From Lytechinus pictus (lineage: Eukaryota): a stretch of 64,000 bases of DNA. This document shows positions 6,011 to 64,000 of the stretch, piece by piece (position 1 is the stretch's first letter; each line of letters opens with the position of its first letter). The stretch spans positions 8,496,001 to 8,560,000 of the forward strand of contig NC_087250.1 of NCBI RefSeq assembly GCF_037042905.1. Reading direction: 5' to 3'. A program made the translations under genes and the position numbers. Below the pieces are notes generated by a model. It had not been told where the DNA came from, made no database searches, and saw nothing but the letters and a program-made list of their open reading frames with translations.

Positions 6011-6569
6011 AGGGGCCCGTTGCATAAAAAGTTATTATTATGGGAACTTTGCCATCCAATGGTAACTACCATGGTAATAATAACAATAATAACGGCATAT
6101 TTACCCAGGGTAGCCACTTCAGTTCCGAAAACTGTTCTCCCAGCGGGCCCTGCTATTATTACCCCGGCTTTAGCACGGCTACCTTGATTGGGCGCTCGAG
6201 TTCAAGGAATTTCTTCCTACCGGGTATCCATTCACCTCACCTGGGATGAGTGAGGCACAATGTGGATAAATTTCTTGCCGAAGGAAATTACGCCATGGTA
6301 ACAATGATCAACAGTCAATCAAAATCAAGGAAACCATGGAAGTTACCATAAAAGTAACTTTTATACAAAGGGCCCCAGAAGTGTTAAGTATTTCATGAAA
6401 AAAAATATCTTCATCGTCATAATCTTCTATTACGGGAATAAGGTGGCGGCCTGTAACTATTACTATTATGGTAACTTCCATGGTTTCCTTGATTTTGATT
6501 GACAATTGTAAATTTTAGTCACATTTACATGTTTCTGAAACATTCCTGGAAATAAGGAAATGAGCCCAC

Positions 6570-6698: not shown

Positions 6699-6819
6699 CT
6701 AAAGAAAGACATACAAAAAAGTTCCTTTATTTTAGTAAGAAACATAAATTTAACATCAGTATCATAAACATGAATGAGAATTCTCTGAATTTGAGACTGT
6801 CTTTCTAAAAACACCAATA

Positions 6820-7302
6820 ATCACCATCATCATCATCACCATAATCATCATCATCATCACTATCACCACCATCACTATCATCATCACCATCATCATCATC
6901 ACATACTTTATCATCATCATCACCATAATCGTAATCATCACCACCACCATCATCATCATCATCATTACTATCATTACAATCATCATCATCATTATCATCA
7001 TCATCACCATCATCACCATCATCATCATCACCATCATCACCATCATCATCATCATTATCATCATCATCACCATCATCACCATCATCACCACCACCATCAT
7101 CATCATCATCATTACTATCATTACAATCATCATCATCATTATCATCATCATCACCATCATCATCATCACCATCATCACCATCATCATCATCATCATCATT
7201 ATCATCACCACAATCACAACCCCCATGACGATCATCCTCACCATAGCCAACACCAACAACATCAACACAACTAACATTAAGTTTATCATCATCCTCATTC
7301 AT
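6820..7302. repeat. (CAT/CAC)n microsatellite
   Basis: Direct reading; source of the spurious poly-D and poly-M ORFs. Confidence 0.95.
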
Positions 7303-7867
7303 CTATAACAATCATAAAACTACAATAATCTCAATCACAATAAACGCCGTTGTACAACGCCTACTTAGCTTGTACGCGAGCAAATGGGAGGCTGAATGTC
7401 TATAAACATCTTTCCTGTTGCACACACAATGTACCATCCAAAATGTACCGTTGCACGGCTTTAGGAGGTGACGTCACAATATGATTCAATTCATTGCGCT
7501 GAGTAAAAAAATGAAGGTAAAATATACGCGTATATTAATAGCCTGGCTAAATACGTAATGCTGCCCGAGGTCATGTGTGCTTGTGGGATTTTGCTTTTCG
7601 CTTTCAATATTTTTGCTCCCTTTTCATGGATTACTTTAGGGAAAACTCGTTTTTCTTTCATTATTTCGCTTAACTCCGAGGCGTACTACAATACAAATAG
7701 CGAATATTCTTATTTGTATAATGGTGCGAGATTTAGCATTTGGTGAAAGAAAGAGACGCTCAATTCAACGAGGCGTTAGCCAAGTTGAATAGAGCATCTT
7801 TATTTCACCTCATGTGAAATCAGATCGTACCTGTGCCAATTTGCTATTTGTATACTATTAGACTCAC

Positions 7868-15154: not shown

Positions 15155-15311
15155 CTGCAAGAGAATATTTTGAAATTTACATGTATTCATTTCATTAGTT
15201 ATTTATTCGTTTGTCACTTAAAAAACACATTTATATTACTTATTAGTTACAAAATGAATTTCAATTGAAACATGATAGAGATCATCACACAAACACAAAT
15301 TTTGGCATCAG

Positions 15312-15975
15312 TCTTCCTCCTCCTTCTTTTGCTTCTTCTTCTTCTACTTCCACATCCTTCTTCTTTTGCTCCTCCTTCTACTTCCTCCTCCTCCCCCCTC
15401 TCATCCTTCTTCTTTTGCTTCTTCCTCTTCTACTTCCCCCTCCTCCTTCTACTTCCTCCTCCTACTTCCTCCTTCTGCTACTACCTCCTCCTTCTTCTCC
15501 TTCCACCTCCTCCTTCTTCTACTTCCACCTCCTCCTTCTTCTTCCTCCTCCTCCCCCCTCTCATCCTTCTTTTGCTTCTTCTTCTTCCCCCTCCTCCTTC
15601 CTCCTCCTTATTCTTCTTTTGCTTCTTCTTCTTCTACTTCCCCCTCCTTCTTCTTCCTCCTCCTCCCCCCTCTCATCCTTCTTCTTTTGCTTCTTCTTCC
15701 CCCTCCTCCTTCTTCCTCTTCTCCTCCTCCTCCTTATTTTTCTTTTGCTTCTTCTTCTACTTCCCCTCCTCCTTCTTCTTCTCCTTCTACTTCCTCCTCC
15801 TTCTTCTTCTCTTTCTTCTTCTCCTCCTTCCTCTTCCTCCTTCTTCTCCCTCCTCCTTCTTCTACTTCCTCCTCCTTCTTCTACTTCCTCCTCCTCCTTC
15901 TTCTTCTCCTCCTTCCTCTTCCTCCTCCTTCTTCTTCTTCTCCTCCTCTTCCTCCTCCTCTCCCTCCTCCTTGTT
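15312..15975. repeat. Polypyrimidine (CTT/CCT)n microsatellite
   Basis: Direct reading; source of three spurious stop-free ORFs. Confidence 0.95.
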
Positions 15976-16127
15976 CTTTTTCATTGGGTCAATCACAATC
16001 CACTGTGTTGACCGGGCCTTGGAAGGAGTTTAATGAAGCTTATGACATCATACGCTTTGCACAACTTTGTGAACGAGCAAATTTCAACCCTTGAGGATAT
16101 AAATCAAAAGGCAAATAATGAACTCAC

Positions 16128-41097: not shown

Positions 41098-43730
41098 ATG
41101 ACTCGTGAAGGATGGGAAGAACATGAAAGACTTGAAACAGAATACAATCAGTGCCTCCAAAAGGCACTGGAGAAAACACAACAAAATATGTCAGTCCTTG
41201 CCCAGGAACTGCAGAAGGTAGAAAAGTCAAAAGCACGCTGTGAGGTACCGTAAGTAACGGTGTATTAACTGCACCTTTTTCTTGGCGGGATATAAGCAAA
41301 AGTCGGGGGTGCGGTTTATCCACGGTGACGGGTCTGAGCCCGCCCGCGTAACCCCTCCCGAACATGTAAGAAGTCTGCCAGTTCACAACACATCGAGTGG
41401 CCGGGCGTAGCCACCCAGGGCAATGTCGTTTAGAGGGGTATGAGCCGCGGGTAATGGGAAGCGATTATTACGATCTAAATCAAATAGTGTCCATAACAAA
41501 TGCACCCACCTTCATGACACTAATTTCAACTTTATTCTCGATTCAAAGCAGCGAAGTTCCCTGGCTAAGTTCAAAGAGACGCCAAGCATTCTCGGTAATA
41601 ATTTCTCACAGCTGAGCAAGAGCCGAGAGCTAGCTTGCGTTGTATTGTGGTTTGAGTGCGACTTAAGCTGGCGCTATTCATTTTAACCCCTCAAAGTCCC
41701 GTTTCGCGCCAGCTTATTTTTCCTTTCCTGTTTGCTTTTCATAAGATACCATGTACACCGTGCACCACGTATGAGAGAGACAGCACAAAGCCGTAAAACA
41801 ACTGGAAAAAATGCCAATTTCTTTGTTTCTTGAACATTCCTGTAATCCCGTATCCAAAATTCATGCTAAGCCATCGAATGCTAGACGAATTCTGAAAGTG
41901 ATTGTGAGGTTGTGATGCAAGAAATGTGAAAGACACAGTTCACAATTTGATATTAAAGATGTACTGGTAGTGGTACCGTATCGAAGTTTGCAATGTACAT
42001 GTACAAGAACGGCAGTGATGTGTGTGTGTACACTGTGACTGTGAGGTGAGTGTGTAAGTGGCCAATATTGTTGGGACCTTTCTTTCTTGCTAACATTTGT
42101 AGATGAATTGATCAAGAACAGCAGATTTCCGCATACCGGTAATCTCTTTGAATACTTTGAAATCTTTAACTTAGTTTTTTTTTTTTTGGGGTCCAAAGTT
42201 GGGGGTGCGGTTAATACACAGGTGCGGTTAATACACCGTTACTTACGGTACTCAAAGACCAATTCAAAGTTGAGGCTTCAGACCTGAGAACTGAATGTAA
42301 CAGGCTGAAACGACAATTGAAAACTGTGGATGATCATTGTCAGCAACTTGAAGAGCAGATCTAAAAAACATTGACTCCAAGATTAGTTACAGCGACTGGA
42401 CAAAAAATTGAGTGACTGAAAGGAAGGTTCTCAAAAGATCAAAGACCTACAGAAAGAAATCAGACAAAAGAATAGAACATTGACAGAAATGGAACATATG
42501 GTAAACGGAGTAATGGAAGAAGAGAAGGTTATTTCAACATTTGAAAATGGACGTTATAATGAAGACATTCGACTGACTGTATATGAATATGTATCCATGG
42601 GAGTCGGTTCAAAGAAGGTGGCTGACATAATACGATCAGTTCTCCAAAGAGTTGGTAAGTTGAAAGTAGGGAGACTTCCAAAGCCCTCACTTGTGAAATA
42701 CATGGCGACAGAGCAGGGCTTACTAGCAAAACAGGCAGCATTTCATTCCATGAGAAACTCAGAGAATATAACCCTGCATTTGGATGGAACAACCAAAAGA
42801 AGGAAACATTTCGTTACTTACTGTACCTCTCAACAACAAACAGTGGCACAGTTGCTATGGGTCTGGATGACATATACTCTGAAACTGCCGACGAGTTGGT
42901 ACACAAAGCTGAAGAACGTCTTCAAGGAGTAACCAAAATATTACCAAGTGAATTAGCAAATGATAACCAGGAGGAAGTTCTAAAGATGCTCGTGAGTGTA
43001 AAGAATGTCATGACAGATAGTGAGATAGAGCAGCAGTGAAAAAGGCCTTTGTGAAAAAGTTTGCAGATTGGAGAGCTAAAGTCTTGCCAAAAATAATACC
43101 ACAGTGGGAAGAACTCAGCGATGGCATAAAACAGCAAATCAAAGTTCAAATCAATGACATTTACTGTGGAAAGCATCTTGTCTTGAATTTTCAAGAGTAC
43201 GCACAATCTGCACTCTATGAATGGGAGCAAGTTGAATCAAACAGTGGCAAACTTGGAAGAGAGAAACACACATTGTGGACTCGTGGTAATGAATCGGCAA
43301 CAATGCTTGCAGTGCATAGTATCTGCTCGTATTTTGGACCGGATGCTGATCCGCAAAGTGGTTACCAGTATTCTTTTGAGTTTCTAGTAATCTAGTCCAT
43401 CTTGAAGATGTGTACCAAGATCAACCGCATTTGCAAGAATTCAGAGGAAATCGATTCAACATACCTTCTGAGAATTCAAAGGCAGTCTGTTACCACATGC
43501 CACATATCAAGAGTCTTATGCACTCCTATCTTGAAAGTGAGAGAAATCTTGTCTGTGGGACTGCGAGGATCCCATAATTGTTGGCGGGATAAGAGCAATG
43601 GGGATGCTCGAAAGACAGCTGACATCTAATGCTTGACAGTTCAATTCACGTGATGGACACATCAACATACTATCAGAGGGCCTTCAACAAAATAAAGCAG
43701 ATGATGGTCAATCCCACTTTTAGATGAAGA
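41098..43730 (+). pseudogene. Decayed DDE transposase with CxxH motif and N-terminal coiled coil
   Basis: ORF pieces TLHLDGTTK, KNVMTD, IYCGKH joined by frameshifts; the frame runs across the 41248-42248 insertion once it is removed. Confidence 0.7.
41248..42248. mobile_element. Tc1/mariner(pogo)-type non-autonomous element, TA TSD
   Basis: TA|CCGTAAGTAACGGTGTATTAAC...GTTAATACACCGTTACTTACGG|TA. Confidence 0.85.
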
Positions 43731-50452: not shown

Positions 50453-53400
50453 AATCACCAACAGCAAATTCGATTTCACATTCATCCTTTATTAGTTTTT
50501 TTAAACTTCATCCTCTCTTCATCTCATCACCATTACCACCATCTTGCTGTTATGACACAGAACATTTACACACAAATCACATATCATACCAATAATCTTG
50601 AGTTTTTGGTAATATCAAATTATCCTCCTGAGTAATGACATGGACATTTTTTCTATTTTCAATACAAACAATATATCATCTGATAATAACTATTACTCAA
50701 CTGAACATTTTACTTCTAGATTTAGAGACATGGAACATAAATTCAGTTTGCTTCATATTAATGCTCGTAGTTTGAACAAAATTTTTGAGTCATTGGAATA
50801 ATTACTTTTCACTTTAAACAATTTCAAATTTTCCATTATTGGTGTCACGGAAACATGGCTTCACAATACTTCACCTAACATATTCAGTTTGGAAAACTAT
50901 AATCTCATTAGGCGTGACCGGGAAGATCAAAGAGGAGGAGGTGTAGCATTTTACATCAGTGAACATTTACAATTCAAAGTAAGGAAAGAAATATCATTAA
51001 AACAGAGTGAAACTTTATTCATAGAAATCACGAAGCCAAAAAGCAAAAATATAATTATTGGATTGATTTATAGACCCCCTCATGATAAAGTAAATTTATT
51101 TTGTGAAGACCTTGAAACGTGCCTTCATACTATTAGAAAAGAAGAGAAACAAATATATTTAATGGGTGATTTTAACATCAACCTGTTATCCCAAAATAAT
51201 GAACATGATTTATTCCTACACACAATGCATTCATTTGGCTATTATCCCCATATAGATAAACCGACCAGAATTGATAGCCATTCATCAACACTTATCGACA
51301 ACATTTTTTTCAAATATATTAAACAGAGATATTACCAGCGGATTGTTAATATCTGATATATCGGATCATTTGCCGGTTTTTTCATTTTGCGATAATGATA
51401 TTCCAAAAGAAAATATACTCAAATCGACAATGTATAGAAAAGAATCTCAAAATAACATTGAATCGTTTAAAAGGGATCTTGCTATTGAAGAATGGTTGGA
51501 TGTATTTCATGAGTCTAATTCAAACATTGCATACACAAATTTTAACAATAAATTGCAGACATTTTACGAGAAAAATTTTCCTCTGATACCACTGGTCAAA
51601 AGAAAAAAGGCAAAAATGCCATGGATTTCTAAAGCAATTTTAAGATCCATACGTACCCGAAATAAACTTTACAAGGCATTTTTAAAGAACCCTTCTATTC
51701 AAAACAAAAATAAATACAAAACTTATAGAAATAGACTAACCAATACAATTCGAGCTTCTCGCAAATTATTTTATTCCGAGAAGCTTTACAAAGTCAAATC
51801 AAACATGAAAGCAACATGGGAGATTATAAATGATTTGATTGGCAAGAAACCCAAAATATTACCCAAAGATAATTTCACAGCTCATGATGTTGCGATAAAT
51901 TCAGAAGATGTAGCTGATACCTTTAATTCCTTTTTTGTTTTCTTAGGACCCTCATTGGCAAACAAACTTGACAGAACTGATGAAAATTTTGGAAAATTTC
52001 TTCCCACACCCATTAACTCTTCTTTATTCTTTAACCCAACAAATGTTCAGGAATTAATTGAAATAACAAAAAATCTCAAATCAAGCAAATCACAGGGAAT
52101 TGATAGAATTAGTACTTTCCTTCTTAAGCAGATCATACACTATATTGCCTCTCCTTTGTGTCATATTTTTAATCTGTCGATTAGCACCGGAATATGTCCT
52201 GATTCCCTAAAAATTGCAAAGGTAAATCCTGTTTTTAAAAAAGACAATCCGCATGAAATAACAAATTACAGGCCTATTTCTATTCTTCCCAGCATTTCCA
52301 AAATATTAGAGAAGATTATTTACAATAGACCTTATAAGTTTCTAGATACTTTTCATTTTCTAAATTCTAACCAATATGGATTCAGGAAAGGACATTCGAC
52401 TGATCAGGCGTTAATACAAATATACGATAAAATTACAAATGCAATGGCAAAAAAAGAACATATAACAGGCGTATTCATGGACTCAAGCAAAGCCTTTGAC
52501 ACTCTTGACCACCAGATATTACTTAAAAAACTTGAAAATTTTGGAATTCGCGGAATTACAATATCTTGGTTCAAGAGTTATTTGTCCAATAGAAAACAAT
52601 ATGTAATTCACAATAATATTCCTTCTGATTTTCAGTTAATACAATGCGGAGTTCCACAAGGATCAATCCTAGGCCCCTTGCTTTTTTAAATATATATCAA
52701 TGATTTGACTTCTGTAACACCTTTATTATCATATGTATTATTTGCAGATGACACCAACATTTTTTGTTCACATAATAGCTTAGAAACTTTAGTAGATATA
52801 ATTAACCGTGAATTACCAAAACTATCTTTGTGGTTTAAGTGTAATAAGCTTTCACTCAATATAGATAAAACAAACTTTATTTATTTCAAGCATACACACT
52901 CACATGATAACGAATTTCCTTACAATATAAACATAGACAATACTCCTCTCAAAAGGAAAAGAGAAACAAAGTTCTTAGGTGTCACAATAGATGAAAATTT
53001 AAATTGGAATGAACATGTACGTTGTATAACTACTAGTATTTCTAGAAACGTTGGTATACTTTACAAAATGAAAAACATTATTCCACATACAACTCTTGTC
53101 ATACTCTACAATTCATTAATATTGCCTTATATATCATATTGCAACATAGTTTCGGCAACATGTGCAAAAACTAAAATTAATACAATATACTTATTACAGA
53201 AAAAAGCAATTCGAATCTGTACTGATTCCCAATATTTATCACACACAAATCCATTATTCCATAAACTAAAGACTCTAACAGTATTTGACATAAATACTAT
53301 TCAAAGTTTACTACTTATGTTTAAGTACGTAAATAACATGCTCCCACCTTCATTCCACAATTTTTATACTCTGAATACATCTATTCATTCTTACCCTACC

Positions 53401-53673
53401 CGTAACTCTTCAAATTTCCATTTAATCAACCCTAAATTGCTTATTGCGCAGAGATCCATAAGACACCATGGTCCAGATTTGTGGAACTCTCTACCAGAGC
53501 CTGTAAAACAATCTTCGTCTCTTCACTCATTTAAGGCAAACGTTAAATCTATGTTATTATCAGAATATTTGAAGTAAAATTTCTGTGTCATATCCTTTTT
53601 ATCGTGAATTTATTCCTCCTTCGATTTAGTCATTACCAATATCTTCATCATGACCACCATCATCTCCATGGCC

Positions 53674-54071: not shown

Positions 54072-54449
54072 CATATACACCAAATATATTTCCTCGCACT
54101 TCGATTTATTATTGTTTTATGTATTATGCGTTATTTTCATGACTGCTTAAAGGGATTGCCCATTTGTAAGGTCTGAATATAAATCATTTCCAGTCCGTAT
54201 TTACGTTCGCATTCAATAGTGGATTAATGAGATATGTCTGCTCTTCATGAATTTCTATAAGCATTAAATGTCAGTGAGTTACGTATGGCCTTAATTCCTA
54301 AGAACAAGCCTTAGATTGCCTTTCTTCAGGTCTGATCGAATTTCAAAAAATTTCAGCTCTCGAAATATTGGATTTAAATTACACATTTACACTATTCTTA
54401 TTATCATTATATTGATATTTTGTATATATTATAGTTATCATTATCATTA

Positions 54450-54498
54450 CTAGTAGTAGCAGAAAAAGAAGAAGAAGTAGTAGAAGAAGTAGTAGTAG

Positions 54499-54554
<56 letters not shown>

Positions 54555-54587
54555 ATAATACTACTACTACTTCTACTACTACTACTT

Positions 54588-54637
<50 letters not shown>

Positions 54638-54641
54638 TCTT

Positions 54642-54681
<40 letters not shown>

Positions 54682-54710
54682 TACTACTACCACTACTACT
54701 ACTACTATTA
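54450..54710. repeat. (TAG)n/(TAC)n microsatellite
   Basis: Direct reading. Confidence 0.95.
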
Positions 54711-55205
54711 TCGTTATTATTTCTATTATATATTATTGTTTTAAAACAAGCTCATTCAGAAATTCAGAAATAACGTGCATGCTGTACGTTCAACAGCTCG
54801 ACACCCCTTCCAAATCACCCTCACACACTCCTCCCTCCCTCACACACACACGCCCACATCATCACACACATCTCCCTATACACACAACCATCACCCACAC
54901 ACAATGAAATAATCACAATTGGTTTAATAGTAAACTGCCCTCAAAACAAAATCGTAGATTTTAAAAGGAGCGTATAGCTCTCAAAATAAAGTCACACTCT
55001 TCGCCCGTGCCCATGATATGACAAAAAATAAAAATGAAATATCCGTTTCTGAAACAGTCGTGAAGAACACTTCTTTCAGAAACGGATTTTGAATTCTCTT
55101 TTCTTGGTCAAATCATGTAATGGGTACTGACAAAGAGTGTGACTCTATCTTCAATTCATACATACATACATAATATATATATATATAATTATATATATAT
55201 ATATA

Positions 55206-55570
55206 TTGTGAAAGAAATGGATGAAGGGAACAATGGTAGGCGTAGCTTAAATCAAGGGTCCCCGGAGCTATCTACCCTTTGGAAAAAAATTGTGATGCCG
55301 AAAAAATGTCTCTGCCGGGAATCGAACCCGGGCTCGCAGCTTTGAACGCCGTTGCCTTAACCATTAGACCACAGAGACGGGTTAGTGGATAGGGCAACCC
55401 CGATCCGATTGACCGTCAGAGAGACGGATTTTTGACACTATACTAATTGTAATTTCCTTTGTCGGGTGTAGGTGGGATTTTGAATTTGATTTTCCAAAGG
55501 GTAGATAGCTCTGGGGAACCTTGATTTAAGCTACGCCTACCATTGTTCTCTTCATCCATTTCTTTCACAA
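55206..55570. mobile_element. MITE with ~80-bp TIRs in a (TA)n tract, carrying a tRNA-like gene
   Basis: 55206-55286 is inversely repeated at 55490-55570. Confidence 0.8.
55308..55378 (-). tRNA. tRNA-like gene or pseudogene with apparent anticodon TCA
   Basis: Manual cloverleaf GTCTCTG-TG-GTCT AATGGTTA AGGC-A-ACGGC GTTCAAA GCTGC-GAGC-CCGGG TTCGATT CCCGG-CAGAGAC followed by ATTTTTT. Confidence 0.55.
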
Positions 55571-57429
55571 AATATTTGAATAAATAAATATATATATATA
55601 TATATGTATACATATATATATAAATTATAAAACCCGTGAATGCAATTGTTGCAAAAAGGAATCTATTATCCCAATTCATTCTTTCTTTTATTATCATAAT
55701 TTTTTTTAGAGGGGGGGGGGGCAAATTAGAATTTTGCAATGGATTTTTCCCAACTACCATACGACTTCCGTGCCATTTCAACCCGAATGGTGGCCCGCCT
55801 TCCTCCCCCCCCCCCCCGTCTTTCACTCATTTGCTTATAAAACCATTATATAGAGAAAAGAGCCAAATACAATGCTTCGTTTTGTTTCAAGTTTGGTTTG
55901 TTTCATTCCATTTCATCTTAACTCAAAAACATGGGAACTCATTACACAGATATGATATGATAATCATAATACAAACGAATAAACAATGTATATAATAATA
56001 GTAACACTAATGGTAAACACTAACTTAGTGTTTAGTGATAAACATATTCATCAATAATTATATATACAATGGAGGTAAAACTACTTGTTGAATATTCTTG
56101 CCTAACATTGCTACCACCAGGGGCGGATCCAGTATTTTCAAAAGGGGGGGGGCACATTTTTCCGATGAAAATTTGACAAGGGGGGGGGGGGTTACCTACC
56201 ACTACCATAATAAATAGATTCAGATTCAGATTCAGATTTATTTCCAACAGAAATAACATGAATATTGATACAAATCATTTTCATACATTATAACAAATAT
56301 TTGCGATACAAATCATTGTCATTATAATCATAGTAAAAAACATCCATGATAATTAATATATAAATATATATACAATCTGTGGAAATAGGAGATTCACTCA
56401 AAAGCAAAGCTTGTATAATGTGAACCTCCCTCAAGGAAGAGAAAAGGGGGGAGAGAGAGAGAAAGAAAGAGGGGGGGGGAGAGAGACGCAATGGTTGCTA
56501 TTTGCCTACGGAGACTTACTGAATAGATTAAAAAGAACAAGATAACCCACAGAACAAGACAAAACTAATAAAGAGTAAAATACCACGAAGAAAAAAAAAA
56601 CAAGAACAAGAACAGGACGACACAAGGAGAAATAAACATAAATAGAAACAGGACGAATTGCGACCGAAATTAGAGAATAAAACAAGATGATAAAGACTAA
56701 TGATAAATGATAAATACTAAGCTACACTGAACATTCGAGGAGTTAGTACCTAATAATAGCAATTCTATTACGTAACATTCGTATAAGTCTTCAGAGGATA
56801 GCATTTCCCAGGTGTTAGGCAGTGAAATTCACACAATGGGATTCAAAGCAATCAAAATTCCACACAGGACCAGTTCTCTATAAAAGGCCCTAACCAATGA
56901 ATAGGAACCATATTTTTCAAGTGTGACGGCAGTGACTACACATCTTTATCTTCATGGTGAGTATTGAGGAGACGTAAGCCTACGGTCTCCTTCAGCCCTG
57001 CTCTCCGTTGGGGAGCAGGCATGGAAAGCCGCCTGGAGTTGAGTAAAAGCGGCAGCTATCATGGCAGTCTCTGATATTTTAAGGCATGCAAGTCATGCTG
57101 ACTTGGGCAGGAGGGCTCCTCCACCCATATTTTTGGTATGTGAGCCATACCTTTCTACATCAGGGGGCTGCCCTACACTGTTTCTTCATTAGGGCGCTGC
57201 CCTATCTTTTCTTCTAGAAATTTCGCTGATTCAGCACACCTTCACATCATTATAATGATTTACTCTGTAAACTCTTTGGTTTATCGAATTAAGCCATATG
57301 CTGATATGACATCGAACCATGTCATTGATTTGGATTGCGAGCCTTACCCTTATTACAGCCTTATTTTGACTTCAATTCATCCGAATAATAAAATTGCTTC
57401 CAACTTTTTCTTACTTGGCATTGCCAAAT

Positions 57430-60030
57430 TTTCTACAATACTCGTTCTAATGTGTGGTTAGTATACCAACCAATAACAGCAACTGTGCTGGACCAAGGGA
57501 TTTAATTTAACCCTTCTTAAAATTGTTGTCGAGTAATTACTACAGTATATACGCCTATATTCCAATCGGATTGTGTACAGAAGAATTCAATACGACACCG
57601 GAGCACCGATAATACTGATGGTCATGGCCAACTGTGTACTGGATTTACTTGTATTAGTTAATACTGCTCTGACAGTCGATTTTGTTTTCACCATCCCAAA
57701 GATGGAGAGTTTCTTACTCTATAGAAGCTACCATTCCTTTGCCATAGATTGGCATGAATCTTTCGCCATATCATAATAATGGGTGACATTCCCGGACATT
57801 ATGAACATGTGTATCTATGTATAAAAATTGTTATGCCTACATTTTGAATTATCCCTCATAGGAATCTTTTACAAGAACCATTTTCGTTTAAACATGTTTA
57901 AAAAGCATCGATTTGGAGTATAAACTGACATCGCTATAACATGGACTGGCACAGGCCTCTCTTTATAACCTAGAGTACATTGTACACAAAAGGCATTTTG
58001 CACAACGCAGGGAATCTTCTTCACTGCTTATAAAACGATGATCGATATGCTCTTGTGTTAAATTTAAAACAAATTAAACAGTTGTACCAAGAGCTTCACA
58101 ACAGCGATATTATCGCTAGATATCTCACAACTCGCGTGGATAATGCATAGACTTACTACTGTGCCATTTTACATATTCGCATAACCCGATTGGTTAGTGG
58201 CAAATTCATAGTCATTTGAATTGCTTTTAAGCTGGGAAAAGCCAAGTTTTGTCACGAAATTCAACTATCATCCATTTGTTGCTTGTAATATGAAGCTTTA
58301 CATTCCTCAAAGGAAAAAAGCATGATAAAAAATGCTTCATTAAATGATTATGGATCTGGAAGGAACTTCATGTTGAAATAAATTTTAATTGCCAAGATGC
58401 AAATCTCATTGTCTGAGGTTTACCAGACAACAATATATAATACACGCAAAATTGTTCCAACTAGTAGTTCATCCGTGCAAGGCGCCTAAATGAATAGCTC
58501 ATTACTATATTCTTATATTAAAAGAGGTATCTAGTACATTTTCACCAGACTTTGTAAATAGGCTACATGCTCAAGCCTGAACATTCTTTTGCTGATAGAC
58601 CTTCCCATTCATTCATGTTGTCCTTGACAACCTACATTGAAGATTTGTCAGACCATGGACCTATATACATGTACATGTATTCTTGTTATCTATTCATTGA
58701 ACAAAGAAGATTTTAATTAAAAAGATTGAACAAGGAAGATTTAAACAGATCGGATTTCTAACTTGACAAAGCACCTAATTATCCTTTCCAACGCAAGCCG
58801 TTGATACTAAGAGTATTCCAAATTCCCGAAGTGTACAACAAGTTGGATTAAGTAACCTTTAAACCTTTCAAAAGTTTAGAATGTATGCAGACATGCATTC
58901 CGACAATTTTGGTATTGGTAAAAACACTGGACAGAGATCCATTGTTTAATCAAAGTTGAAATTTCTTCCACCCTGTACTCATCTTGTACAAGACTATCAA
59001 CCATGAACCATCAACGTTGTGCCATGCAAAATTACACAATATGCTACCAAGAAGACTTAACTATATTTAAAGTAACTTTATATAATACATGGATTCCCAA
59101 GAGAACTTTTCATGAATGTTAACAATCAGTCATCTGATATAAAATATTGTATAAGCCATTATGATCCCTAGAGGATGCTGCTTTGATTTGTACATTTGTA
59201 TCGCTGAAATTGAGTTTTTTCATTACTAACTCCTCGATCACGAGGGAAATACACCAAAAAAAAATATGAAATTGTGTTGATAAATAGTTTGAAAAAAAAA
59301 AAAAAAAAAATGAATAACAATAAAACTGGGATTTCTGGAAGCGAGCTCTCGAGGTCTGTTTTACAGGGGAAAGTTAAAAACCTAACCTGCTTGGTTCTTT
59401 TACTATTTACATCATTCAATCAGACGACTATGTTATGTCATGTATAAAAAAATTGGAGATCGAAGTGTCATCATTTTGGACTTGTATCTCAAATTAATTT
59501 CTGACAATTATCAACATTAAGATTCATTACTTATTGTGCCAGTCAATTATGCTTATACTCAAACCGGATACTCCACAACCTATGATTGATCTCAATCACT
59601 GCTAATATCGTTAGCATGTTTATAGGTGTCGCGATCATGTTTTGTAAGGTATCTGACCTGCTAACTACCAACATAAATGTTTAGGAATCAATTTCTTGCA
59701 CGGCACCTATGCCCTAGAACAATAATTTTTTAAAACAAATTTGTTTTTCACAAACAAATGAATACCAATATCATTAACTATTCAAATTGATACGTATGTT
59801 TGATTAGAAGAATAAACTCCAATTTTGCAAGCTGTGCTGTAAACTACACCCTCGACCACCACTATGCTGATAATCAAGTATTATTGAATCATGGACCTAC
59901 CCATGATTGAATTAAGGCAATTTACTGCCTACAAATCCTTGTTGAACTCCTTGTCTCAATTACAGTATTTGACAGCAATATAACTCTTTATCAATTGTAA
60001 TGATAAAATTCATTAGTCGAACAAAATTTG
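57430..60030 (+). pseudogene. Heavily decayed Penelope-like reverse transcriptase ORF
   Basis: Collinear remnants: LTTYIEDL, KTLDRDP, AKLHNMLP, SDIK/LY, EIVLINS, QSDD, SVIILDLYL, LKPDT, QFLARH, LV(R)TK; many stops and frameshifts. Confidence 0.45.
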
Positions 60031-61469
60031 AAAACATGAAATTTCATTTAATTTAAACCATGGTTATCAAGTTTATAAATCTTTCAGGAAGCTTTTCTTT
60101 TCAGGTATTCTTACATCTAAATTCATTACAGCCTTTTATGGACTTCCAATTCGGGAGAATATCCTTTTACTTGGCACACCAAATTACAAGGAAGTTTGAT
60201 TCAATTTCATTGTACCAAATTGTTGAATGTTAATCTTTTGGGGGCAATCATAAATTATATCTTCTTATTTTGACGTCAATAATTCTGCTCTTCTCTGCTG
60301 ACAGCAATTACGTCCAGCGTGCTCAAACGCTGAATGAACCATCCAAATGTCACTTTCAAGAGTTGTCATGAAAGTTATTTTGTACGATGAGAAAATTATT
60401 TGAACATCACTACTTTGTTCTCTTCAATTATGAATTCTTCTTTGTTGATTGCTTTTTCTAAACTACTCTTCTCAGGTTAAAGGTGCACAAACATGACAAA
60501 GATTACTGTCTAGTATTCACCCATTGGAACCCCCTAAAAATATTTAGTAACCTTGTCTCAGATCAAAAACTGAATTAGTTTTTACATTTTATACCATCTG
60601 ACCATGATGCCTCAGTAATTGTTCCGCGTTTCATCAATAATTAACTACCTCCTTCACCACTAAAACTTTTGATTTGATCATAGAGAAATATCTTGACTTT
60701 TGATATCTGAAGCAAGATATTATTTTCATCCTTATATAGTACGATGAATCTTCCAACATTAGTTATTCTTATCTTAAACGTCGATTATTATATATGGCTC
60801 TTCCAGTGAGGCCATTTTCGCCTCTACTGCTGATGTAGAAAACCTTAAAATGATATAAAAATTATTTGAAAATATTTCACATTTATATCAATGGATTATA
60901 TAGAAGTATGATATGTACTTGATTGATCGGAGATAATTTGCAAGATGAATCGATGAGGAATATTTCACTGATTAATTTCCTCGCCTTCATTGAGAAACAA
61001 TTTATTAATAATTATATAAATATAATCATTGGCTGATTCAGTGTTCCTTAATTACATTTTCATAATGTCAATTCATTCTGAAGTGTTATAAATATTTCTA
61101 GTTTGGCAAGTGGCAACATCGTATGACCACGTTGAGGTAATATGATCTTTATGAGATCATTAGGGGAGATAACTTTCAAATTGTTTGAAATTGACTTCTG
61201 ATATGTGGCTTTGAACATGCTATCCTCTGAAGACTTATACGAATGTTACGTAATAGAATTCGTAAATTATACAAATAGTATGAAGTATAATTAGAATTCT
61301 ATTAGTAATAATGAAGTATAAGTCGAGGAGGATCCCACCCTGCATGACTGCATCAAAACAATTTTATTCCCTCCCGATTATACAGAAGTCAATTTTGAAA
61401 TGCAGAACTTATTTTGTGGGAATATAGCGCCATCTATCTAGAAATAATCTATTCCGAGGCACATTGTTA

Positions 61470-61683
61470 GTATTATTATCCCCGACTTAAGCACGAGCTG
61501 CCTCTTAGCGCTCAGTGCAATCAAGGAGTTGATCCTGTCGGTACCCATTCTCCTCACCTGGGTTGAGTGCAGCACATGGTGGGTATATTTATTGCAGAAG
61601 GAAAACATATCATGCCTGGAATTTGAACCCATGTCCGTCTGATTGAAAGACGAGAGTCGTAACCACTAGACCACGGCGCCCCA
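61470..61683 (-). mobile_element. tRNA-derived SINE nested between the ICR and right ITR
   Basis: A-box TGGTCTAGTGG, B-box GGTTCAAATTCC, CAACCCAGGTG core, (TAA)n tail. Confidence 0.75.
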
Positions 61684-64000
61684 TTCAAACACATACAACA
61701 AATTTGTACAAACCAAATGATTATTTGGTGTGTACATCTTGAAAAATTACTTAAGTGGATTGGAAAGCAATCCTGTTTCTAGTTCTTTACAAGATCTTTG
61801 TGTTTTTGTATGATCTTAGCCGTCTTTGAAAAGATGGTTCCTATTCATTGGTTAGGGCCTTTTATAGAGAACTGGTCCTGTGTGGAATTTTGATTGCTTT
61901 GAATCCCATTGTGTGAATTTCACTGCCTAACACCTGGGAAATGCTATCCTCCTCGACTTATACTTCATTATTACTAATAGAATTCTAATTATACTTCATA
62001 CTATTTGTATAATTTACGAATTCTTGTTACACTTCAGCTCGCGTCAAGTGCATCTGGAAGTTTGAATGCGAAGTTAACGGACACCAGGGCCCTGTCTTAC
62101 TGAGAGTTACGATTGATCCGATTATCCTAAAGTATATGGAAATCCATCAACGTCATAATTTTTTCGTCAGGAAATTTGCACAATGTCCTTTTTATTAACA
62201 AAAAAAAGTACACTGAATTTTCAAGAAAATTATGAATGTACATGAAAATATACGTCATATATAGAAAATATTTTGATCAAACATTTGTTTTAGATGTTGA
62301 TGTTGCTGGCTTTCCATAGTTTTGGTTGATTGGATCAATCGTAACTCTTTGTAAGACGGGTCCAGATATGTTTGAATCACCCAGGTCGAGTCTCAACGGA
62401 GCACAGCTTACCCTAACAGTCATCCTTGAGTACATCTTGGATCCATTTCATAAAACTAGTTATAATAACAAATTTCCATTTGGCAGTCAAAAGCTACTGA
62501 AGGCCTTCAATCTGATTGGCTGATAGTCATATAATATAGGAAATTTGTTTTAACAAGCCTTTATGAAACAGTACTCTTGCTAGTCACCATGATTTACAGG
62601 GAAGTTGTCATGCTCGGGAAATATCCTAGAACGTAAACGTAATAATAACTTAAGCCATGAAGACATTTCAAAAGTATTTACAAGTACATGTATATACAAG
62701 AGATGTAAGACAATTGATACTACAGCAGTTAACATAAATACATCAGGGTCCCTTAGTCCATCGCCTAAATCCACCACTGTTTTTTCTTGTCACTTTCCAC
62801 TTGAGATAGGTCCTATATTCAAAATGTTTTACTCACTCACTTTATTCAGTGTCCAAACTGTACTCTGGGACACGATTAGAAAAGTAAATGTCAAATCAAC
62901 ATTGAAAGGAACTTGGAGGAGTGAAACCTTTTCTAAATGTTGCACTTACCAGCATTGAATGGTTTGAACCAATACTTAAAGGGGTTCTCCAGGGTTAAAA
63001 AAATATGATTTGAACAGATAAAGAAAAAATAAAAACACCGAAAATTTGATCAAAATCGTACAAGAAATAACAAAGTTATGGCATTTTATTTTGGGATTTG
63101 CACTATTCCGACAGTAAGTTCTATAGGCATGTCTTCATCAATATCCAATACGCATACTGATGATCTCATATCCCCACTTTTTATTTTGTATTTAATTATA
63201 TGAAATTAAATTTATTCAATTATTTTCCTCAAGGACAAAAAAAATGGATTGACAACTGATTCAGTGCATTAGATATTCATTGCTACAACTTATTTCATTA
63301 TAAGGGTATCATAATTATCACTCACTTATGCATGAACAATTATGATTTTCTGTAATGATATTAGAAAAAGGAAAGTGGGGATTGACATCATCAGTCCACC
63401 TAATGAAAATTCATGGCGACGTGCGTATAACTGTTTTCACAATATATTGCTAAAATTTAAAATTCAATAACTTCACTATTTGTTATCAGATTTTGATGTA
63501 ATTTTCAGCATTTTGTTTGTGTAAATTTTACTCTATTTGTTTAAATATAAATATTTTCAGCCCGGAGGATCCGGATTCAGCTTTATGCAAAGTTGAATAT
63601 AAAATTCCGAAAATTTTGTCACTCTTCCAGCCTTTTAAATGTTGATTTCATATTTTAGAGTGAAATTAAGTGAAGTCTCTGAAAAAATGCTTAATTCTCA
63701 ATTTTCTCTCTCTTTTCAATACCCAAAGCGTATTAAGACATACGACCATAGAGATATATACTAATTAAGCTGGGCTGATACTTCCTTGTTGATAAAACCT
63801 TCGGCTGATCATCTTTATCCTGAATACATTAATATGTTACAATGAAATAAAATAAAATACCTCAAAATTTGAAAATTAAGAGGGCAACTTAGAAAAGGCT
63901 GTTTAAAAACATGGCATTGGTGTCAGTCTCATATTGTCTGAAAACAGTCTCCTGATGCCCGTGAAGAACTCTTATCGAGGCAAAAGAAGGTTGCTACCCA

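Follow-up and report, generated by a model that had tools for sequence, protein, structure and literature searches.

Does the segment at 56761-62024 of the window, the whole 64-kb stretch of DNA analysed here, open a new class of retroelement, or does it belong to a kind that is already known? A sequence-only reading had combined DIRS-type termini with a Penelope-like RT and proposed an undescribed class. Our analysis gives a different answer: a known kind gains another member, a hitch-hiker on a known family, and no new class is opened, as the proposed pairing of a Penelope-like RT with DIRS termini is absent. We consider it highly probable that these 5264 nt are a complete copy of a DIRS1-like tyrosine-recombinase (YR) retrotransposon that is non-autonomous and encodes no protein. 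The copy is very probably a LARD-like derivative that has kept the cis-acting parts alone, namely two inverted terminal repeats (ITRs), a bipartite internal complementary region (ICR) and a hairpin-forming right extension (rE). In all likelihood it was mobilised in trans, by an RT and a YR that presumably both acted in trans, and integrated at AATTCT by recombination. Its parts are as follows.

56761..56766, + strand: left core AATTCT, an element/target hybrid site; the hexamer recurs at the right end, and the ICR junction carries it as AGAATT.
56761..56793, + strand: left divergent ITR, 33 nt, exact complement of the left ICR and partial complement of the right terminus (blastn, alignment).
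56794..56911, + strand: left conserved ITR, 118 nt identical (128 nt at 98% to 56921).
56880-56887, + strand: TATAAAAG and then CCAAT, inside the left conserved ITR.
56922..61216, + strand: interior, 4.3 kb, non-coding; a multi-copy repeat conserved in a related species.
61217..61260, + strand: left ICR, 44 nt, reverse complement of the left terminus 56761-56804 at 100%.
61255..61260, + strand: circular junction AGAATT, the ICR overlap, common to both ICRs.
61255..61333, + strand: right ICR, 79 nt, reverse complement of the right terminus 61946-62024 at 100%.
61470..61682, - strand: passenger that resembles a tRNA-derived SINE, in the stretch from the ICR to the right ITR, seen by eye in the sequence.
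61834..61951, - strand: right conserved ITR, 118 nt, an identical but inverted copy of the left one.
61952..61984, - strand: right divergent ITR, 33 nt (four-way alignment).
61985..62024, + strand: rE, 40 nt, complementary to the right ICR only (four-way alignment).
62019..62024, + strand: right core AATTCT, the same hexamer as the left core.

The inverted arms (56794-56921 and 61824-61951) are complementary at 98% over 128 nt, and blastn of the element against the window extends them outward at ~92-93% (56753-56916 and 61829-61992; ~92% over 158-166 nt). Because the two ICR blocks overlap by the 6 nt at 61255-61260, they form a 117-nt block (61217-61333) that corresponds exactly, in reverse complement, to the right end followed by the left end, with one AGAATT common to both. 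There are no mismatches in the 118 nt of the ITR or in the 123 nt shared by the ICR and the termini, 241 paired nt in total, and no other inverted pair in the 8-kb region exceeds 48 nt (81%). These inverted and complementary repeats are thus far beyond chance. The sequence-only reading had described the identical 118-nt repeats and the circle-junction block, and both were recovered, with every coordinate it gave. It had also seen a different outer extension at each end. This proved half right: a four-way alignment of the termini and ICRs, which delimits the divergent ITR and the rE, gives a 40-nt extension at the right end only, and the remainder is not a pair of unrelated extensions but a 33-nt divergent ITR on each side. 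The word GAGGAT is common to both ITRs and both ICRs, at the border between the divergent and conserved parts. Together with 61979-61984, the rE folds into a 15-bp terminal hairpin (-10.7 kcal/mol, z -4.97), and none of 200 shuffles folds as well. No direct repeats longer than 33 nt occur in 55500-63500, and the flanks show no duplication beyond the AATTCT hexamer.

We then compared these dimensions with those published for DIRS1-like elements (Piednoel et al. 2011, PMC3266345), in which the divergent ITR spans 9-36 nt, the conserved ITR 31-304 nt, the rE 9-75 nt and the two ICRs 24-110 and 36-89 nt, the total length is 3.8-6.2 kb, and the ICRs lie near the 3' end. Our element (33, 118, 40 and 44-79 nt; 5264 nt in total) falls within all of these ranges, with its ICR near the 3' end too. 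One departure is the ICR overlap, which is 6 nt here and 3 nt in the described DIRS1-like elements. Among the animal examples in Table 3 of that paper, LgDIRS2 from Lottia gigantea, NveDIRS6b from Nematostella vectensis and BfDIRS1 from Branchiostoma floridae share the lTer-lICR-rICR-rTer-rE layout with our element, and the sizes are close: 33 nt against 23-34 nt for the divergent ITR, 118 against 118-141 nt for the conserved ITR, 40 against 45-49 nt for the rE and 44/79 against 40-60/67-83 nt for the ICRs. As in these elements, both ends carry the same short word, to which the ICR junction is complementary, and AAT/ATT is present at the ends, as in most Table 3 entries. Unlike them, our element has no GAG, YR or RT-RH-MT genes, and its ICR is separated from the right ITR by ~490 nt that include the SINE-like passenger. 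In DIRS-1 of Dictyostelium discoideum, according to Malicki et al. (2020, PMC7192593), the ICR is likewise the exact complement of the outer ends (33+55 nt, against 44+79 nt here), and there are a right-end extension, a 3' hairpin and repeats that are the likely promoter, as in our element; DIRS-1 differs in being autonomous, in its 300-nt repeats and in inserting mainly into itself. The DIRS1-type terminal architecture put forward in the sequence-only reading is therefore supported by both the complementarity and the published dimensions. The element shares with DIRS1-like members the ITRs, the two adjacent ICRs near the 3' end, the junction overlap and a right extension complementary to its own ICR only, and it was found to have neither a tyrosine recombinase nor an RT-RNase H(-methyltransferase) related to Ty3/Gypsy. 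Because the YR profile is absent, we file it as a non-autonomous derivative and not as a full DIRS1-like member.

Next, we examined public sequencing runs, of which X1 and X5 come from organism A (two studies) and X10 from organism B, a related species. In run X1, which may be the source sample of the window assembly and whose library type is only guessed, a contig with a depth of 103.5 joins 56755 to 62019 with 'GC' between them, so that it reads flank-GC-AATTCT-flank, with the hexamer present once and a 3-nt difference in the flank. The contig represents an empty allele, which shows that the insertion is polymorphic and that the 6-nt junction core was present at the target before integration. 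In the same run, the depth is ~56 on the element contigs and 113-117 on the flank contigs. Thus, the element is roughly single-copy at half the flank depth in this run, and nothing points to a recent burst in organism A, which counts against our reading. In run X5, the depth was 10-21 over 56733-59162 and 0-2.5 in eight of the nine bins in 59163-61349 (14.4 at 59892-60134); with a flank depth of ~15, this drop may mean that coverage of a heterozygous insertion was lost or that another allele is present.

We also investigated how such an insertion could have arisen, on the basis of the Cappello and Poulter-Goodwin model, of which PMC3266345 and PMC7192593 give summaries. Transcription would begin close to the interior-facing end of the left ITR, where TATAAAAG with CCAAT is a candidate promoter by analogy with the DIRS-1 model, and the resulting RNA intermediate would be copied in trans by the RT of an autonomous DIRS1-like relative. 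The ends of the single-stranded cDNA would then pair with adjacent parts of the ICR as splint and template, restoring the termini and closing a circle with the junction ...TTTACG-AATTCT-ATTACG.... The relative's tyrosine recombinase would cross this circle with a genomic AATTCT, leaving one AATTCT on each side of the integrated element and no true target-site duplication. The 6-nt core of the ICR junction is indeed identical to the one hexamer in the empty site, a match that homology-guided recombination would predict, whereas a duplication from a staggered cut would match the ICR core only by a 1 in 4096 coincidence. We thus found integration at a genomic word equal to the junction, without a target-site duplication, in a single insertion (n=1), so that the 6-nt core is an upper bound. 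Parts of this cycle have precedents in DIRS-1 (PMC7192593), in which the 3' hairpin is proposed as a primer, a role that our hairpin may share, and the RT is shown to be active in trans. However, in the one laboratory attempt of this kind, made in Dictyostelium, a truncated DIRS-1 failed to complete retrotransposition in trans (PMC7192593), and full trans-mobilisation is therefore not experimentally established for the DIRS1-like group.

Could the element instead have moved as DNA, either by Crypton-like excision and reinsertion of a circle, the empty allele being a precise excision, or as a TIR transposon with a 6-bp target-site duplication? The inverted termini, the hexamer on both flanks and the exact empty site all fit such movement, and none of them alone requires an RNA step. 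RNA support for the element is indeed minimal, which counts against our own explanation: in the ~6% of run X21 that was covered, there was one small RNA cluster on the element (6 molecules, 56927-57108), and since all four of the four reads at 57166 differ from the window copy, they stem from another copy. Yet a TIR transposon leaves unexplained both an internal exact complement of the right end, hexamer and left end and a 'duplication' equal to the ICR junction; TIR-like repeats and a flanking hexamer are present, but the ends differ in length and the ICR junction also contains the hexamer. Moreover, without re-templating on the ICR, the ICR and the termini should drift, as copies differ by 5-12%, whereas no mismatch was seen in 123 nt, and the ICR was shown to be essential for the retrotransposition of DIRS-1 (PMC7192593). 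Movement by DNA alone therefore appears improbable.

We next considered the interior, where the sequence-only reading had seen eroded ORFs between perfect ends. A six-frame Pfam search by read-through translation, with stops read as X, matched no family at E<=10 (no RT, GIY-YIG, RNase H or recombinase), while the same search recovered the RT of a neighbouring LINE in the window across an in-frame stop (RVT_1, 2.1e-37). This stop-tolerant search for RT, GIY-YIG and recombinase profiles is therefore negative with a working control, and the earlier view that neither GIY-YIG nor a recombinase is present was borne out. The longest stop-to-stop frame is 105 aa, compared with 102 +/- 18 in 300 Markov shuffles, and there are 663 stops in the element against 698 +/- 20 in the shuffles. 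Within the element, ARAGORN detected no tRNA and Rfam no RNA family. Since stop density and the longest open frame match those of shuffled sequence, there are no 'eroded ORFs'. The element is thus non-autonomous, as had been proposed, with an interior that lacks coding capacity. Likewise, the earlier argument for recent mobilisation stands on its perfect ends, now joined by the empty allele, but loses its ORF remnants. Given perfect ends, a non-coding interior and an empty allele in public reads, the evidence supports a young, recently mobilised element.

The same interior was found in other copies. In organism B, DNA contigs cover 29 of 30 bins, and pieces ~88-95% alike extend across the whole interior (8-29 other letters per 153-374 nt among the pieces listed). 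The summed depth is 146-1363 in all non-SINE element bins but one (15.4 at 58191-58433), and 9.65 and 0 in the two outer flank bins, the other flank bins lying on abundant repeats. Diverged pieces occur in organism A too (X5 records 19, 22 and 23). The element therefore belongs to a multi-copy family. These data also bear on the idea that a once-autonomous DIRS1-like copy lost its genes by decay in place after insertion. Its 5264 nt is the length of an autonomous element and its ICR near the right end is the standard layout, but the paired nucleotides are without mismatch and the insertion still segregates, although no profile matches the interior and its stops are shuffle-like; decay so complete cannot fit so short a time. 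In addition, the second-species copies have the same interior, and therefore it was already non-coding when the family spread. Decay in place is thus very unlikely.

The SINE-like passenger has ATAATAATA as its tail. Its 3' limit is uncertain (61422-61470), its head carries motifs that we take to be A- and B-box-like, and blastn gives a 75.7% match to window 6154-6287. The bin at 61350-61592 reached depths of 21336 in run X1 and 313690 in run X10. Contigs from other copies span both passenger borders (X10 record 15, 61331-61541; X5 record 23, 61547-61858), and the passenger is thus part of the element family and not a private insertion.

The evidence for a new class, in which a Penelope-like RT would be paired with DIRS-type circle formation and our element would be an eroded member, consisted of eight short residue strings. 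Seven of them are present in the stated order (58624-59692), but they are split over two different + frames with many stops between them, and 'DIK.LY' was found in no frame. For the frame with the most strings, phmmer found no match among 1,835,955,588 proteins at E<=0.001, in line with the Pfam result and its control and with the shuffle-like open frames; there are also no direct repeats resembling pseudo-LTRs. We therefore reject assignment to the Penelope-like elements (no RT of that type, no GIY-YIG, no pseudo-LTR), with which our element has no tested feature in common, and without that RT the claim of an undescribed class falls. No combination of such an RT with DIRS termini is described in the titles or abstracts of the papers listed by the literature searches. 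We regard this explanation as scarcely credible. An assembly artefact is no better placed, since, although inverted repeats are a common product of mis-joining and no contig among those listed spans the whole stretch, the contigs of a public run end precisely where the repeats begin or stop (56794; 61246), which is how a de Bruijn graph behaves at true repeats, second-species contigs cover the ITR and the ICR (records 15 and 16) with raised depth in bin 61107-61349, and the structure follows detailed DIRS1-like rules beyond any artefact.

We also asked which other known systems resemble this derivative. The split direct repeats of Ngaro and PAT-like elements (A1-...-B1-A2-B2) were not found, the repeats here being inverted, not direct. 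TOC1 is of the PAT-like, split-direct-repeat type and not of the ITR+ICR type, and the '-N' in DIRS-N1 marks a non-autonomous Repbase family. These are non-autonomous DIRS-order elements already in print (DIRS-N1 by name), so that this category is not new; they resemble ours in being protein-less or defective and reliant on the enzymes of a DIRS-order relative. LARDs and TRIMs are non-autonomous LTR derivatives with direct LTRs, integration by a DDE integrase and a 4-6-bp target duplication. What they have in common with our element is a set of intact terminal cis-signals around a long non-coding interior conserved in the family.

For the preferred reading, that of a non-autonomous DIRS1-like derivative, it counts as a difficulty that no autonomous partner, recombinase or RT of the element lies within the 64-kb window. 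A metagenome scan with a 24-nt ITR word gave no matches.

DIRS-order elements are the least understood retrotransposons, and integration through a circle and a recombinase is so far a model for them. With its perfect ITRs and ICR and a matching empty allele, this young, polymorphic copy without genes offers a natural before-and-after view of one integration event, which reads as a target AATTCT, a junction AATTCT and a product with AATTCT on either flank. The element also delimits the cis-signals that may suffice for mobilisation. We tentatively suggest that a protein-less DIRS1-type lineage may have parasitised autonomous relatives since before the two species split and may still be moving, as a segregating insertion. 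If this is true, it would be natural proof that reverse transcription, repair of the ends on the ICR template, closure of the circle and integration by the recombinase can all come in trans, and an RNA with only ~0.6 kb of terminal and ICR signals would suffice for the full DIRS cycle in trans. In that case, the right extension would act as a snap-back hairpin, and the recombinase of the lineage would cross over on a 6-nt core, AATTCT, compared with the 3-nt junction described so far.

The inverted arms at 56794-56921 and 61824-61951 proved to be 98% complementary over 128 nt in a repeat scan, with the outer 118 nt identical. The same scan showed that both ends of the element recur inside it as perfect complements: the right end (61946-62024) is the 100% complement of 61255-61333 over 79 nt, and the left end (56761-56804) is the 100% complement of 61217-61260 over 44 nt. 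These internal blocks overlap by 6 nt (AGAATT, 61255-61260) and together form a 117-nt block (61217-61333), and both outer ends of the element read AATTCT. Direct reading and the repeat scan thus confirmed the identical 118-nt inverted repeats noticed in an earlier sequence-only reading, and the internal block that it had described as complementary to both ends was likewise recovered. A blastn search with the element as query and the whole window as target returned the same repeat pairs, showed the terminal repeats extending outward at about 92-93% identity, and gave a 140-nt SINE-like stretch as the sole further match elsewhere in the 64 kb. Chance is ruled out for the arms, because the runner-up inverted pair within the 8-kb neighbourhood was only 48 nt long at 81%.

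A four-way alignment of the two termini and the two internal blocks resolved the ends into three parts and placed GAGGAT, which is common to all four sequences, at the border between the divergent and conserved parts. The right extension and the last bases of the inverted terminal repeat (ITR) fold into a 15-bp hairpin (-10.7 kcal/mol, z -4.97), and 0 of 200 shuffles were as stable.

Parts of the element, with ranges for DIRS1-like elements given in Piednoel et al. 2011 (PMC3266345); ICR, internal complementary region. ITR parts and right extension are from the four-way alignment.
Divergent ITR: 33 nt, both sides; published 9-36 nt
Conserved ITR: 118 nt; published 31-304 nt
Right extension, 61985-62024: 40 nt, right side only; published 9-75 nt
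ICRs: 44 and 79 nt; published 24-110 and 36-89 nt
Total length, 56761-62024: 5264 nt; published 3.8-6.2 kb
tRNA-derived SINE-like unit, about 61470-61682 (-), from the sequence

Piednoel et al. (PMC3266345) define DIRS1-like elements by ITRs with a divergent and a conserved part, and describe two ICRs at the 3' end whose overlap is a 3-bp circular junction, along with a right extension that pairs with the right ICR only and a short word common to both ITRs and both ICRs. Identical trinucleotides, mostly ATT or AAT, are described there at both ends, and the elements are said to integrate without target-site duplication, recombining with a genomic copy of the same word; the definition in Goubert et al. 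2022 (PMC8969392) agrees. The DIRS-type ends proposed from sequence are therefore borne out by the ITRs, the overlapping ICRs, the right extension and sizes within the ranges of PMC3266345, although the overlap in our element is 6 nt rather than 3 bp. As reported by Malicki et al. 2020 (PMC7192593), DIRS-1 retrotransposition requires the ICR, the DIRS-1 reverse transcriptase (RT) is able to act in trans, and a truncated DIRS-1 failed to finish its cycle in trans. The paper also notes that a 3' hairpin has been proposed as the DIRS-1 primer, to which the hairpin of our right extension may be compared. Non-autonomous elements of the DIRS order have already been published, among them TOC1 and the zebrafish repeat named DIRS-N1 (PMC5400779).

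The sequence-only reading had also placed a Penelope-like RT between these ends and proposed an undescribed class. With both strands counted, the longest stop-to-stop frame is 105 aa, against 102 +/- 18 aa in 300 first-order Markov shuffles, and the six frames hold 663 stops against 698 +/- 20. Given that both values match the shuffles, the interior is statistically like non-coding sequence. Pfam searches of all six frames, with stops read as X, gave 0 families at E<=10; on a LINE 5 kb upstream, our positive control, the same read-through bridged an in-frame stop and recovered RVT_1 at 2.1e-37. Most of the residue strings taken for RT motifs fall in the frame-1 read-through of 58450-59760, for which phmmer gave 0 matches at E<=0.001 among 1,835,955,588 representative proteins. 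In these searches no RT of any type, GIY-YIG, RNase H or recombinase was detectable in the element. Seven of the eight strings are present and are separated by many stops; + frame 1 holds five of them and + frame 2 the other two, and 'DIK.LY' was not found. The Penelope-like reading is one of short strings without statistical weight, and the claim of an undescribed class falls with it, whereas non-autonomy stands, there being no coding capacity in any frame. Our search, whose scope was the literature and not Repbase or Dfam, found no description of DIRS termini around a Penelope-like RT.

The only RT in the neighbourhood lies outside the element, in a LINE-type non-LTR retrotransposon at 50802-53577 (+). 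Besides RVT_1 (2.1e-37 in read-through), this LINE has an Exo_endo_phos endonuclease (E 7e-05); one in-frame stop (52687-52689) interrupts it, and its reading frame changes near 51256-51356. Farther away, at 42420-43395 (+), three open frames (123-170 aa) of protein-like composition overlap in successive frames, which suggests a frameshifted gene or transposase remnant; they had 0 Pfam matches at E<=0.01. Long open frames on both strands at 6762-7308, 15247-16094 and 54379-54907 arise from simple-sequence tracts and are not genes.

We also mapped four public runs to 55761-63024 at a likeness of at least 88%. In X1, a run from organism A that is possibly the sample behind the assembly and whose library type is only a guess, a contig of depth 103.5 joins 56755 to 62019 via GC. 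It reads left flank-GC-AATTCT-right flank, an element-free site with one AATTCT, in which the flanking ATAATA is one ATA short. The element is present in X1 as well, in a 2826-nt contig on 56794-59618 (1 other letter, 1 gap, depth 56.5; flank contigs 113-117), and contigs break at 56794 and 61246, where true repeats would break a de Bruijn graph. Since X1 holds both forms, the insertion is polymorphic or heterozygous, and the single AATTCT means that the target held the six bases of the ICR junction before insertion. The paired termini, ITRs and ICRs show 0 mismatches in 241 nt, by which the element is young; together with the empty allele, this upholds the recent mobilisation proposed earlier. 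In X5, a run from organism A in a separate study, depth was 10-21 over the left half and about 15-18 in the flanks, and 0-2.5 in 8 of 9 bins of 59163-61349 (14.4 at 59892-60134), which may reflect lost coverage or an allele of different structure.

DNA contigs of organism B, a second species (run X10), cover 29 of 30 bins, and the eight listed pieces, 153-374 nt long, each differ by 8-29 letters and 1-17 gaps. Summed contig depth, a poor gauge of copy number, was 146-1363 in the non-SINE element bins, except for 15.4 at 58191-58433; in the outer flank two bins stood at 9.65 and 0, the remainder lying on abundant repeats. This contrast indicates a multi-copy related family in organism B that shares the whole interior, not just the ends. 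Diverged paralogues occur in organism A too (X5 records 19, 22 and 23). Bins 61350-61835, around the SINE-like unit, are hyper-abundant (21336 in X1, 313690 in X10). Contigs of other copies (X10 record 15, X5 record 23) span both borders of this unit, which is therefore an old family passenger rather than a private nested insertion. At 61540-61604, thousands of RNA and DNA reads agree only over some 65 nt, diverging at 61539/61540 and 61576-61604, which suggests a conserved central domain common to several SINE families; 6154-6287 matches the passenger at 75.7% (blastn). The RNA run X21, of which roughly 6% was read, had almost nothing on the element. A single cluster, of 6 molecules, covers 56927-57108; it lies immediately interior to the left ITR, about 40 nt past TATAAAAG (56880-56887). 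Its reads mismatch this copy at 57166 in 4 of 4 cases, and it represents at most weak transcription of some family member.

Other repeats lie close by. At 62079-62564, 55 nt right of the element, a hyper-abundant repeat (depth 42759-76840 in X1, 153203-226251 in X10) has inverted arms at 62088-62135 and 62316-62363 (48 nt, 81%) and many 'opposite strands' joints at 62132-62137 / 62324-62326, one with 197+181 RNA reads; it looks like a transcribed MITE or foldback family. Another abundant repeat occupies 56004-56246, 0.5 kb to the left (depth 495 in X1, 7891 in X10, 670 in X5). A tRNA-like gene at 55307-55378 (-), called tRNA-SeC with anticodon TCA by ARAGORN and scoring 55.1 bits with the Rfam tRNA model, could be a true gene or a SINE head.

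Movement as DNA only is less favoured, and so is a TIR transposon that duplicates 6 bp. The flanking hexamer is that of the ICR junction, a coincidence of 1 in 4096 for an unrelated duplication, and ICR and termini match perfectly though family copies differ by 5-12%, as re-templating of the ends from the ICR in each cycle would predict. From this one insertion the crossover core can be put at no more than six bases, of which three might agree by coincidence (1 in 64). Following the DIRS-1 model, transcription would start from the left ITR, and the RT of an autonomous DIRS1-like relative would copy the RNA. Both cDNA ends would then anneal side by side on the ICR, restoring the termini; the circle would close with the junction TTTACG-AATTCT-ATTACG, and a tyrosine recombinase would cross this junction with a genomic AATTCT.

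With its cis-architecture, absence of genes, young age, one-AATTCT empty allele and family in two species, the element is best placed with the DIRS1-like retrotransposons, as a non-autonomous, LARD-like derivative. We take the '-N' in DIRS-N1 to mean non-autonomous as well. The present case is of modest interest, for its pairing of a filled with an empty allele, its 6-nt core and its hairpin extension; it would imply that the DIRS cycle can be provided in trans in its entirety.
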